Of a stretch of 64,000 bases of DNA, positions 1,822 to 31,068 are shown piece after piece. The position numbers were made by a program, and so were the translations under genes. The stretch lies in the NCBI RefSeq assembly GCF_056746865.1, contig NZ_CM163382.1. One strand, given 5' to 3'. The notes beneath the pieces are model-generated. The model was not told where the DNA came from. It saw only the letters and a list, made by a program, of their open reading frames with translations, and ran no database searches. Position 1 is the first letter of the stretch. Every line of letters begins with the position of its first letter.

Positions 1822-2219
1822 AGTTGATTATAGTTATGTCAATTTAAGTTTATTATTATGATTTTTTATTTTTGTACTATGAATCTCCTGTATGCTTATA
1901 TGTGCAGAAAATCTCATTTTATCAAGAAGAATATCAAATTTTCTCCGATACTTCTACATACTCCATCATTCATGCTCCTTTTATCCGTGCACCGTAAAAC
2001 CCCGTCCTTCAGCGGGGGATATAAGGCGCTGTTTTCCACCTAACCAGGTGTCTGCTGCTATTCAATGTATTGGCGGATGACGGATGCCGCCCGTTGAAGC
2101 AGGACCCCTCGTCCTTAGGGCGTGGAGGATGTCAAAATGAAAACTTGTGGTATGAATCAATCCATTCATCATCCTTTCGGATCATTGCATTCAGTATAAC
2201 GCTGGGTAATGACTCCAAC

Positions 2220-2723
2220 TTATTGATAGTGTTTTATGTTCAGATAATGCCCGATGACTTTGTCATGCAGCTCCACCGATTTTGAGAACGACAGCGACTT
2301 CCGTCCCAGCCGTGCCAGGTGCTGCCTCAGATTCAGGTTATGCCGCTCAATTCGCTGCGTATATCGCTTGCTGATTACGTGCAGCTTTCCCTTCAGGCGG
2401 GATTCATACAGCGGCCAGCCATCCGTCATCCATATCACCACGTCAAAGGGTGACAGCAGGCTCATAAGACGCCCCAGCGTCGCCATAGTGCGTTCACCGA
2501 ATACGTGCGCAACAACCGTCTTCCGGAGACTGTCATACGCGTAAAACAGCCAGCGCTGGCGCGATTTAGCCCCGACATAGCCCCACTGTTCGTCCATTTC
2601 CTCGCAGACGATGACGTCACTGCCCGGCTGTATGCGCGAGGTTACCGACTGCGGCCTGAGTTTTTTAAGTGACGTAAAATCGTGTTGAGGCCAACGCCCA
2701 TAATGCGTGCACTGGCACGACAT
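2220..2723 (-). CDS. insB: IS1 InsB (expressed as InsAB' by frameshifting)
   Basis: 167-aa ORF ...[53 protein letters not shown]...[13 protein letters not shown], the canonical IS1 InsB. Confidence 0.85.
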
Positions 2724-2917
2724 CCGACGCCATTCATGGCCATATCAATGATTTTCTGGTGCGTACCGGGTTGAGAGGCGGTGTAAGTGAACTGTAGTTG
2801 CCATGTTTTACGGCAATGAGAGCAGAGATAGCGCTGATGTCCGGCAGTGCTTTTGCCGTTACGCACCACGCCTTCAGGAGCGGAGCAGGAAGGACATCTG
2901 ATGGAAATGGAAGCCAC
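2642..2917 (-). CDS. insA: IS1 InsA
   Basis: 91-aa [46 protein letters not shown]..., the canonical IS1 InsA. Confidence 0.9.
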
Positions 2918-3180
2918 GCAAGCACCTTAAAATCACCATCATACACTAAATCAGTAAGTTGGCACCATTACCTGACCAAGCTTCCTCTATTGCGGCACCT
3001 GATTGCATCAATATCGAAAGTGATAAGATCCTCTCACTAGCAGGGCATGACAAGTGTAACTGCTGATTTGTTAGCCTGTTTTAAGTTTTTTAAGATCAAT
3101 TATTTCTCATTTTTTGACTTTATTGCTAGCCGTGAAAATGCAAAGCCTATAGGATACAAAAATTACAATTTGTAGGTTTT

Positions 3181-3687
3181 GTGAGTCATATGAAGGCAAC
3201 CAATATAGACCCTCAACTGCTTGAAAAAGCCACGAGTATCTTTGCTGAGTTGGGCTTACCTATTGAGCAGGCTATTAACGTCTTTTTAGCTAAATCCGTT
3301 CAAGCCAAAGGTTTTCCGTTTTCTGTTGCTCTTGAAAATGAAGTAGAGACACGGGAAGTTGCACAAACGCAACACAATATCAGCAATGCAGAGATAACCG
3401 AAGCTATCCAAGACTTGGTTGAACATGCTCTACCACTGAGTGAAATAGAAAACCTCACGCAGCTAACCTATTGTCGCAACATTTTTGGGTTGTCATTCCC
3501 CGTGCTCAAACTGGCTAAATCATCACGGCCAGAAGACATTCGCAGTGCAGCCAAAGATGCCAAAGAGCGAAACCGCTACTCCACCACTAAAGTGGCCCAG
3601 CGAGATGAAAAAACCTATGTTATTTGCACCCAATGGACCGACAGACATCGTTCTGCATTTTGCCGTTGGCAAGCCATCTTTAGCTAG
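3181..3687 (+). CDS. hypothetical protein with a ribbon-helix-helix (DinJ/RelB antitoxin-like) N-terminal region, immediately upstream of hsdM
   Basis: 168-aa ORF; the N-terminus ...NIDPQLLEKATSIFAELGLPIEQAINVFLAKSVQAKGFPF resembles DinJ/RelB-family antitoxins. The C-terminal 100 aa have no family I recognise. No cognate toxin ORF follows. Confidence 0.4.
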   Translation: MSHMKATNIDPQLLEKATSIFAELGLPIEQAINVFLAKSVQAKGFPFSVALENEVETREVAQTQHNISNAEITEAIQDLVEHALPLSEIENLTQLTYCRNIFGLSFPVLKLAKSSRPEDIRSAAKDAKERNRYSTTKVAQRDEKTYVICTQWTDRHRSAFCRWQAIFS

Positions 3688-28910: not shown

Positions 28911-29269
28911 GAGTAATGTTCATCACCAGGTTATGTACGATGAGTTTTCCACTGTTTATAGCAATTATCTTGCTAATAACCAGACAGGAGTAACCAGACC
29001 AACCGAAAACACCGGGGAGGTGATTACCCGCTGGCAGAGGAAATCCGGTTTTTTTTGATGTCAGCCATAACGTGTTTGACAATAAAGCATTATGAAAGGG
29101 TGTTAATGAGTCCATGGGATAATTCATAAAAATAATTTACTGTGTTGTCCTTTTCAAAAGAAATATTCAGAAGATAACCCCTGGCTGACAACCAGGGAAA
29201 GGGGACATTAACAGTGTTATTATTGGTGGATAAATTATTACTTGTGTGCAGGATACACTAATGCGATAT

Positions 29270-30289
29270 CTACTGATACTGTATGCCAGAATGTTTCCTG
29301 CCTGCTGCTGAAAACGGCAATATCCAGGGCCAGACATATTCACCATTCATATTTCTGCATTTCTGTACAATTTTCTCAGAAAGCGTCTCATCAATTCTTT
29401 CACGCAACTTCTCCTGCTGTCTTAAAATACTTTCGCATATTTCGAAATCATCTTCCTGCATCAGCATTTCGGCGCATTTAATGATTTCTGCCCGTTCATG
29501 CAGCACAGAGGAATGGTTATAGAGCCAGTTTACAAACAGCAATGCTTCCGGATATTGTCCCCATAATGGTGAGTATGTTGCATAATAATCTTCGGCAGTA
29601 TCCGGCCCGGCAGAATAGTTATGCCATACAGCAAGAGGAAATGGATGCAGATTTCCGCACAGCATTTCCGCGATGTAAGTATTTGCCGCAAATCCGCGAC
29701 GAAATGCAGTTGCAGCTTTTACCTGTTCCCCATTAAGAAAATGCAGAAGACCAAGTTCATACCAGTAAGGTGAAAATTCATCAGCATGTTTTTTCAGTAC
29801 ACTGAAGGCTCGCTCATGATCACCTGTTCGTAACAGTTCTGAGCCCAACAACCAGCGGGCACCCTGATTATCTTCAGGATTGTATGCCAGTATTTTATCA
29901 GTAAGCATAACCGCATCCTGATGACGCTGTAAGTGCACATTTGCGAGAATTGCTGCATAAAGTGCGCGCAGATAAGGCCGGTTTTCGGGATGCATCCAGA
30001 TGATTTCACCACTGAAACTTTCCGGGATGAGACGATTACCTGCCGCCAGTCCTTTAAGAGCGGCGTTCAGTGCCTTACGCGGGGCATTCTGCTCCAGAAA
30101 TGCATATGCCAGATGAGCGTGTATATCAATAAAGTCAGGCTCCTGTTGAGCAAGGCGTCTGAGTTTGTTGATATAACCCGTCTCACTGATTTCATCAGTG
30201 TCGTATGCATCAAGCACTTCTTCAAACTCCCCCAGTAATGGGCCAAACCAGGTATCCGGAAATACGAAACGACCCTGGTTATTGTTCAC
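29270..30289 (-). CDS. hypothetical protein, 339 aa (helical; no family recognised)
   Basis: Intact ORF between the sulfatase-domain gene and the IS1::IS2 chimera. Confidence 0.4.
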   Translation of the reverse strand: MNNNQGRFVFPDTWFGPLLGEFEEVLDAYDTDEISETGYINKLRRLAQQEPDFIDIHAHLAYAFLEQNAPRKALNAALKGLAAGNRLIPESFSGEIIWMHPENRPYLRALYAAILANVHLQRHQDAVMLTDKILAYNPEDNQGARWLLGSELLRTGDHERAFSVLKKHADEFSPYWYELGLLHFLNGEQVKAATAFRRGFAANTYIAEMLCGNLHPFPLAVWHNYSAGPDTAEDYYATYSPLWGQYPEALLFVNWLYNHSSVLHERAEIIKCAEMLMQEDDFEICESILRQQEKLRERIDETLSEKIVQKCRNMNGEYVWPWILPFSAAGRKHSGIQYQ

Positions 30290-30298
30290 TTCAAAGCG

Positions 30299-31068
30299 GG
30301 TGATGCTGCCAACTTACTGATTTAGTGTATGATGGTGTTTTTGAGGTGCTCCAGTGGCTTCTGTTTCTATCAGCTGTCCCTCCTGTTCAGCTACTGACGG
30401 GGTGGTGCGTAACGGCAAAAGCACCGCCGGACATCAGCGCTATCTCTGCTCTCACTGCCGTAAAACATGGCAACTGCAGTTCACTTACACCGCTTCTCAA
30501 CTCGGTACGCACCAGAAAATCATTGATATGGCCATGAATGGCGTTGGATGCCGGGCAACAGCCCGCATTATGGGCGTTGGCCTCAACACGATTTTACGTC
30601 ACTTAAAAAACTCAGGCCGCAGTCGGTAACCTCGCGCATACAGCCGGGCAGTGACGTCATCGTCTGCGCGGAAATGGACGAACAGTGGGGCTATGTCGGG
30701 GCTAAATCGCGCCAGTTCGCCCGGATGTTGGGACTTGAACCGAAGAACACGGCGGTGCGGAGTCCGGAGAGTAACGGCATAGCAGAGAGCTTCGTGAAAA
30801 CGATAAAGCGTGATTACATCAGTATCATGCCCAAACCAGACGGGTTAATGGCAGCAAAGAACCTTGCAGAGGCGTTCGAGCATTATAACGAATGGCATCC
30901 GCATAGTGCACTGGGTTATCGCTCGCCACGGGAATATCTACGGCAGCGGGCCAGTAATGGGTTAAGTGATAACAGGTGTCTGGAAATATAGGGGCAAATC
31001 CACTGCATGACAAAGTCATCGGGCATTATCTGAACATAAAACACTATCAATAAGTTGGAGTCATTACC
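30299..31068 (+). mobile_element. IS1 with an internal segment replaced by the 3' end of IS2 (chimeric, defective)
   Basis: IS1 left end GGTGATGCTGCCAACTTACTGAT at 30299 and intact insA. The insB frame switches to IS2 sequence after 30715 at a shared CGCCAG. The IS2 terminus ...GGGGCAAATCCA ends at 31003, followed by the last 65 bp of IS1. Confidence 0.8.
30354..30629 (+). CDS. insA: IS1 InsA (variant)
   Basis: 91-aa [25 protein letters not shown]...; differs from the copy at 2642-2917 at several residues. Confidence 0.85.

Follow-up and report, generated by a model that had tools for sequence, protein, structure and literature searches.

An inverted pair of IS1 copies in a pheU genomic island is probably a by-product of recombination between two island lineages

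The insertion sequence (IS) IS1 is known as a constituent of composite transposons, whose two IS1 copies are in direct orientation in Tn9 and inverted in Tn1681. Deletions of DNA adjacent to IS1 are classical events, as is homologous recombination between IS copies; a literature search on IS1 adjacent deletions and on Tn9 yielded nothing directly usable for the present comparison. The island KpLE2 of strain K-12, located at leuX, carries yjhBC/nanXY. For GI-pheV, one of the E. coli islands that are located at tRNA genes and equipped with P4-type integrases, a mosaic, modular structure has been described, in which the modules are separated by IS elements, are gained and lost by recombination, and include a highly conserved nan module (PMC11537424). 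Here, we report on a DNA stretch of 64,000 nucleotides (contig NZ_CM163382.1 of RefSeq assembly GCF_056746865.1; hereafter the window), in which a complete IS1 (IS1-L) and a defective IS1 (IS1-R) lie in inverted orientation around approximately 27 kb of a genomic island at the tRNA-Phe gene pheU. We conclude with a probability of about 0.84 that the two copies are unrelated residents of two island lineages and that the inverted bracket arose as a by-product of homologous recombination between these lineages. In this scenario, IS1-L would be an intact, divergent isoform, long resident at the left edge of a module encoding a RelB-like protein and a type I restriction-modification (R-M) system, while IS1-R would be an old fossil that was already fixed between a TPR gene and a raffinose-type (raf) cluster. 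A crossover within the TPR gene would then have joined the body of a selC-type island (segment A, IS1-L and modules B, C and D) to a pheU end comprising IS1-R, raf, the integrase gene and tRNA-Phe. The elements in question are:

2205..2972, minus strand: IS1-L, a complete IS1 of 768 bp, with its outer end (right terminal repeat, IRR) at 2205 and its inner end (left terminal repeat, IRL) at 2972
30299..31068, plus strand: IS1-R, a defective IS1::IS2 chimera of 770 bp
29843..30041: crossover interval inside the TPR gene, deduced from mismatch maps and situated 260-460 bp left of IS1-R

A repeat search across the whole window revealed two pairs of inverted repeats that cannot be due to chance. 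The arms of the larger pair (2556-2972 and 30299-30715) comprise 417 nt, are 93% complementary and lie 27,326 nt apart, and those of the smaller pair (2205-2270 and 31003-31068) comprise 66 nt with 100% complementarity. The arrangement shares with composite transposons that two IS copies surround a cargo and that both outer ends are formed by an intact IRR. Of the 417 nt shared by the two copies, 30 differ (7%), and the InsA proteins deviate from each other at 6 of 91 residues. Perfect runs measure 105 bp in the 417-nt arm and 66 bp in the terminal arm. A 9-bp target duplication was found neither at IS1-L, which is flanked by ATAACGCTG and TGACCAAGC, nor at IS1-R, which is flanked by TTCAAAGCG and GACGAAGCG; likewise, the outer flanks of the whole IS1-bounded unit (ATAACGCTG and GACGAAGCG) do not contain such a duplication. 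We ascribe this to the fact that each copy is itself a rearrangement joint. Since TTCAAAGCG and GACGAAGCG are alike at six of nine positions, a decayed target duplication at IS1-R was considered. It was rejected because the intact TPR genes of the strains AR13438 and CM2 run on with TAATCTGTCGTTCAT, which means that the two flanks of IS1-R have never been contiguous. The partial likeness is coincidental. These data are in line with the initial annotation of the window, which had described a complete IS1 on the minus strand and a defective chimera on the plus strand inverted around about 27 kb, different insA alleles and the lack of 9-bp duplications. It had also placed an R-M system, a candidate defence module, nanXY, sulfatase paralogues and tia between the two copies, a gene content that agrees with the RefSeq annotation of relatives, whose shared stretches are block by block 99.5-100% identical to the window.

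To compare the locus with 5,426 complete Escherichia coli genomes, the island was split into segment A, IS1-L, the modules B, C and D, IS1-R, the raf cluster, a solo IS2 left end, the integrase gene and the tRNA gene. The larger units contain the following genes:

2973..19987, plus strand: module B, with a RelB/DinJ-like gene, hsdM-hsdS-hsdR, genes for a KwaA-like and a hypothetical protein, rhuM, mobI, an IS3-family pseudogene and an ECs1377-family gene
19988..25749: module C, with ythA, nanY, nanX and a truncated phosphoethanolamine-transferase paralogue
25750..30298: module D, with an integrase fragment, tia, a full phosphoethanolamine-transferase gene and the TPR gene
31069..39182, minus strand: raffinose-type cluster, with genes for a porin, a GH32 hydrolase, an MFS transporter, an alpha-galactosidase and a regulator

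The joint A|IS1-L|B was detected in 18 genomes, the joint TPR|IS1-R|raf in at least 209 genomes and the IS1/IS2 joint of the chimera in 301 genomes, and in none of the genomes (0/5,426) did both IS1 copies enclose one block. Nor was the section of the window from 15000 to 32000 fully covered by any of them, as the matches ended at 30298 or began at 18678. The strains CM2, ApSLC23, UID2309220015 and STE15, which are 99.7-99.9% identical to the window, belong to the former group, their match stopping exactly at IS1-R (30298). Strain 165 and its relatives represent the latter group, in which module B is absent. IS1-L together with the bracketed segment and without IS1-R was identified in CM2, ApSLC23 and 201609 at selC and in AR13438 at pheV. 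In CM2, ApSLC23 and AR13438, IS1-L is accompanied by the modules B and C and by all or most of module D, raf is missing and an intact TPR gene is directly followed by the integrase and tRNA genes; in 201609, too, the TPR gene is intact and these genes come right after it. IS1-R along with raf, integrase and tRNA-Phe, on the other hand, was found without IS1-L in strain 165 (pheV) and in tcmA_3 and 4FM (both pheU); strain 405 also possesses IS1-R without IS1-L, which is the case in at least 209 genomes in total. The place of IS1-L and module B is taken in strain 165, tcmA_3 and 4FM by an AAA-domain protein, a Dnd/Dpt system or an IS26 erm(B) unit. Both island types coexist at separate loci in CM2 and FY10. 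In every relative examined, module B was bounded on its left side by IS1-L, i.e. an IS1 was present at this spot in all B-bearing genomes examined, and a search for the empty site using flank-only queries did not disclose any genome in which segment A is joined directly to module B.

The structure of IS1-R is that of an element which no longer encodes a complete transposase. Its positions 30299-30715 correspond to nt 1-417 of IS1 and include an intact insA open reading frame (91 aa, 30354-30629). A 6-bp microhomology (CGCCAG) joins the IS1 part to the last ~290 nt of IS2 (~30710-31002), whose right terminal repeat ends at 31002. The remaining sequence (31003-31068) is made up of the last 66 nt of IS1 including the IRR. 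In this way, insB has been replaced by IS2, while both terminal repeats and insA have been kept. IS1-R removes the first 15 bp of the TPR coding sequence and its other flank is unrelated DNA. In islands without IS1-R, the intact TPR gene is followed by 418 bp and then by the integrase gene. Taking this arrangement as the 'empty' state, IS1-R with raf constitutes a replacement and not a simple insertion. We regard IS1-R as an old IS1::IS2 fossil that is immobile and has become fixed in pheU and pheV islands, with the TPR gene on one side and the raf cluster on the other.

Evidence for the origin of the two halves came from mismatch maps. In comparison with CM2, the window showed four mismatches over the section 14,674-29,842 and none between 24,000 and 29,842, followed by 12 mismatches over 29,843-30,283. 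The comparison with tcmA_3 gave the reverse picture, with many mismatches until 29,978 and then just one until 31,100, and 4FM differed from the window by four mismatches in the 10.5 kb from 30,297 on. Left of the switch, the window is hence similar to the selC-type islands of CM2 and ApSLC23, and right of it to the pheU raffinose islands of tcmA_3 and 4FM. As the maps change partner at this point, the crossover is located within the TPR gene at ~29,843-30,041. We infer from these comparisons that homologous recombination in the TPR gene, which both island types share, probably joined a selC-type body to a pheU raffinose end. Some points weigh against this reconstruction. The crossover would rest on proxy parents, since the source genome is absent from the set of complete genomes, and the stretch 29,843-29,978 of the window mismatches both proxies. 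Moreover, with the left end of the island outside the window, horizontal replacement looks the same as an intrachromosomal exchange between a selC and a pheU island, which is just as possible because CM2 and FY10 harbor both island types. Finally, mobilisation of the 28.9-kb unit would be physically conceivable, given an apparently functional IS1-L and intact IS1 ends on both outer sides.

In contrast to IS1-R, IS1-L possesses all components of a complete element, namely the two 23-bp terminal repeats (IRR, GGTAATGACTCCAACTTATTGAT; IRL, GGTAATGGTGCCAACTTACTGAT), open reading frames of 91 aa and 167 aa (insA and insB') and the A6C frameshift motif AAAAAAC at nt 307. In several genomes, copies with 100% identity to it have been annotated as 'IS1 family transposase'. 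AR13438 and ApSLC23 contain the same DNA, to which their annotation assigns an intact transposase with programmed frameshift (WP_227165677.1), and the copy of 201609, which has three mismatches near its outer end, bears the same annotation. Judged by its sequence, the transposase of IS1-L is apparently intact. The inner junction (IRL|TGACCAAGC) was identical in every B-bearing genome inspected, whereas the outer flanks turned out to be of five different kinds:

outer flank 1: ColV-plasmid-like cytochrome b562 DNA
outer flank 2: integrase fragment with tia (SMS-3-5, 219 and 254D-1)
outer flank 3: end of an autotransporter gene (ApSLC23)
outer flank 4: mer operon (ETEC1738)
outer flank 5: 178-bp stretch and ECs1377-family gene (201609)

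The IS1 copies at this left site exhibited 0-48 mismatches to the window copy, which resided in discrete tracts. While the copies of AR13438 and ApSLC23 did not reveal any mismatch and that of 201609 three, we counted 22 mismatches in CM2, all of them within nt 398-705, a tract resembling the IS1-R-type allele. In ETEC1738, 33 mismatches were distributed over nt 154-705, in SMS-3-5, 38 mismatches were confined to the outer nt 19-476, and in 219 and 254D-1, 40 and 46 mismatches, respectively, affected other tracts. IS1 exchange, conversion or adjacent deletion would be expected to leave an inner joint that is fixed, an outer joint that varies and a hybrid IS. The pattern shows that IS1-L has repeatedly swapped its outer flank and sequence patches with other IS1 copies. 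This may have happened by homologous recombination between IS1 copies, by gene conversion and/or by IS1-promoted adjacent deletion, routes that are inseparable here. The missing target duplication of IS1-L is explained by the later exchange of the outer flank. In SMS-3-5-type islands, an inverted tia segment lies outside IS1-L. An inversion between the two IS1 copies of the window was rejected as the origin of this layout, which is better explained by a deletion next to IS1 or by an exchange between IS1 copies starting from a 201609-like arrangement, with no search made for the reciprocal joint.

The outer flank of IS1-L in the window, segment A (1-2204), contains:

1..1253, minus strand: left part of the segment, an IS2 copy cut by the window edge, recognised by its inverted match to the IS2 fragment of the chimera and by alignment to an IS2 of AR13438
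1414..1821, minus strand: cytochrome b562 gene

The ColV-like DNA of this segment (175-2204) ends exactly at the outer end of IS1-L. The section 175-2205 is 98.5% identical to the plasmid pAPEC-O2-211A-ColV and matches about 250 plasmid places. pAPEC-O2-211A-ColV itself runs uninterrupted past the junction into LysR and cytosine permease genes and does not contain an IS1 at this position. Thus, plasmid DNA has been captured into chromosomal islands beside IS1.

With these data at hand, other explanations for the IS1 pair can be weighed. The bracketing of the segment by two IS1, the intact outer IRR and the apparently intact transposase of IS1-L would be consistent with a composite transposon like Tn9 or Tn1681 that is functional, or was active until recently, and carries the 27 kb along as a unit. 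We regard it as highly improbable, though, since the outer flanks share no duplication, the unit does not exist in any of the genomes compared, the copies are 7% divergent and one of them is devoid of insB, and each copy is widespread on its own. Furthermore, the cargo travels instead with P4-type integrases at selC, pheV, pheU and leuX. Even less credit, practically none, is given to an intramolecular replicative transposition of IS1 (duplicative inversion). It would account for the inverted orientation and for the absence of conventional target duplications, but it predicts nearly identical copies, whereas 30 of 417 nt were found to differ. In addition, the 9-bp target should then be present inside, next to one copy, and as its reverse complement outside the other. 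Neither TGACCAAGC and the reverse complement of GACGAAGCG nor ATAACGCTG and the reverse complement of TTCAAAGCG matched, and IS1-R, which is fixed in at least 209 genomes, is older than the juxtaposition. It is also doubtful that IS1-L serves as a portable handle, by which the RelB-like/type I R-M/KwaA-like module is moved among islands, plasmid-derived DNA and transposons. Such a movement could proceed via one-ended IS1 events or IS1 x IS1 recombination and would account for an inner junction that never changes in spite of at least five outer contexts. According to a weaker variant of this idea, the transposase of IS1-L could mobilise the 28.9-kb block by acting on the IRR at its two outer ends.

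The initial annotation had dismissed a recently mobilised transposon, which is corroborated by the lack of a duplication and of a second location of the unit, and had instead regarded the pair as a scaffold for inversion or deletion. That RecA uses the pair to invert the 27 kb is conceivable in view of the perfect runs of 105 bp and 66 bp and of the fact that other repeats in these islands clearly recombine, yet we consider it unlikely. This was tested with a query composed of the four flanks in inverted arrangement, with which only inverted genomes would give one joined match. The predicted joints (A|IS1|TPR and RelB|IS1|raf) were not detected in any of the 5,426 genomes and the maximum coverage was 25%. 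The homology is short and overall diverged by 7%, and the arrangement is unique, so that there is no population that could show the flip. Deletions are not to be expected either, as inverted repeats do not give rise to them by simple recombination. RecA might physically flip the segment on rare occasions, but there is no sign that this has occurred. Hence, the missing duplications do mark rearrangement joints, as the annotation had implied, while its scaffold idea found no support for this pair. The independent acquisition of the two IS1 without a rearrangement between them had been named as the observation that would contradict it; in fact, each copy was found without the other and the rearrangements in relatives make use of other repeats. 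Very unlikely, in our opinion, is an assembly chimera, in which the TPR join would stem from the collapse of the ~4.5-kb D segment common to two islands. Such an error is suggested by a configuration that occurs in no complete genome, by a switch located in a repeat with 97-98% identity between the island types, and by the presence of both types at separate loci in CM2 and FY10. However, natural recombination results in the same pattern, the window does not show other signs of misassembly, and similar crossovers in such conserved island stretches exist in finished genomes, e.g. in the hybrid phosphoethanolamine-transferase gene of AR13438. Recombination between two island lineages, each with its own resident IS1, thus remains the explanation that we prefer.

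The rearrangements seen in relatives were driven by repeats other than the IS1 pair of the window, namely by other IS1 copies, a 724-bp duplication, the phosphoethanolamine-transferase paralogues and IS2 ends. The two phosphoethanolamine-transferase/sulfatase paralogues (24576-25749 and 27721-28894) form direct repeats of 1.17 kb with 92% identity. In AR13438, ~3.1 kb including tia are absent and the single phosphoethanolamine-transferase gene is a hybrid of both paralogues. Recombination between the two paralogues has deleted tia from this strain. The ECs1377-family gene ('DNA-binding protein'), which is located at 17882-18605 in the window, is part of an inverted 724-bp duplication in 201609 (12369-13092 and 26320-27043). 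Between these two copies, IS1-L and module B of 201609 are inverted relative to the modules C and D, as compared to the window and CM2.

A further rearrangement concerns the raf cluster, which is not enclosed by the IS1 pair. The cluster and the 66-nt IS1 tail are positioned between the IS2 right end (31002) and the following solo end:

39185..39226, plus strand: solo IS2 left terminal repeat, 42 bp (repeat length according to PMC3299598)

In strain 405, the DNA corresponding to 31003-39182 of the window is precisely deleted. Its sequence (7300-7410) reads IS2 right end, AG, 42-bp IS2 left end, and the AG spacer is equivalent to the 2 bp preceding the solo IS2 left end in the window. In the circle junction of IS2, the right end is the donor and the left end the recipient, and both are separated by a spacer of 1 or 2 bp (PMC3299598). 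The order of right end, 2-bp spacer and left end in strain 405 resembles this circle-junction chemistry (PMC3299598). Unlike in a circle junction, the ends originate from two separate truncated IS2 copies, and raf was deleted without circularisation of an element. The junction of strain 405 matches the known IS2 reaction and is of the IS2-transposase type.

The right part of the island allowed us to define its attachment site. It comprises:

39310..40524, minus strand: P4-type tyrosine integrase gene of the island, whose ortholog is annotated as integrase in relatives
40671..40746, minus strand: tRNA-Phe gene (pheU), the attachment site, followed by dicD, dsbD, cutA and dcuA

The integrase gene is situated just inside tRNA-Phe, and dicD, dsbD, cutA and dcuA lie outside, which identifies the locus as pheU. 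Here, as in tRNA-integrated islands with a P4-type integrase, a tyrosine integrase gene adjoins a tRNA gene at the island edge. The chromosomal flank of pheU (40800-52000) is 100% identical in many strains including E. coli 042 and 98232. In strain 98232, the pheU site is empty, with cadC, tRNA-Phe and dicD adjacent to each other. Because the site is unoccupied next to an identical flank, all DNA of the window left of 40.8 kb is an inserted genomic island. A second copy of the tRNA-Phe 3' end was not found within the window, which on its left side does not reach as far as the other end of the island. Taken as a whole, the island is an element with a P4-type integrase that has integrated at a tRNA gene. 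Strain 98232 carries segment A, IS1-L and module B elsewhere on its chromosome, ~1.45 Mb apart from the empty pheU site.

Module B of the window further contains the following IS copies:

9705..11014: IS1203/IS629-like insertion splitting hsdR, with the 3-bp duplication ATA
13364..14673: IS1203/IS629-like insertion splitting rhuM, with the 3-bp duplication AAG
18678..19987: resident IS1203-like copy

The copies in hsdR and rhuM do not show any mismatch in 1,306 nt. Among the relatives examined, the hsdR insertion is specific to the window, and both hsdR and rhuM are intact in AR13438, CM2, SMS-3-5 and ApSLC23. As hsdR is split by the IS, the type I restriction subunit is probably inactive here, while hsdM and hsdS are whole. 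Just downstream of hsdR, a candidate defence pair is located at 11568-12964, which according to the annotation of ApSLC23 encodes a protein of the KwaA family and a hypothetical protein. Further along, the corresponding island of SMS-3-5 also holds a separate Kiwa system that an IS has disrupted.

The significance of these findings lies mostly in a correct annotation. The region should not carry the label of a composite transposon, and the hsdR gene, into which an IS has recently inserted, has to be considered as split when the defence content of the island is scored. The locus provides an example of how IS elements and conserved genes such as the TPR gene, the phosphoethanolamine-transferase paralogues and the ECs1377-family gene act as recombination points, at which modules for defence, sialic-acid use, adhesion and sugar use are reshuffled among islands at selC, pheV, pheU and leuX. 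It also illustrates a route by which ColV-plasmid DNA ended up beside a chromosomal R-M module.

Compared to Tn9 and Tn1681, the window has in common that two IS1 flank a cargo and that the outer repeats are intact, the inverted orientation being that of Tn1681. It differs from these transposons by the absence of a flanking duplication, by the 7% divergence of the copies and the loss of insB in one of them, by the fact that the segment never occurs as a unit, and by the separate distributions of the two copies. The similarity to IS1 adjacent rearrangements and to recombination between IS copies is closer, since one junction is fixed and the other variable, a duplication is missing and hybrid IS1 are present. 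Unlike the classical adjacent rearrangements, the events at this locus are deduced from comparative data only, in which transposase and RecA routes are inseparable. The combination of a selC-type body with a raffinose end at pheU was not seen in the complete genomes, but otherwise nothing fundamental distinguishes the island from GI-pheV and KpLE2. It shares with them an integrase gene beside a tRNA gene, IS-separated modules, conserved nan genes, the gain and loss of modules and the occurrence of the same modules at different tRNA loci. Thus, the structure of the window is ordinary mosaicism of an IS-riddled island and corresponds to known biology.

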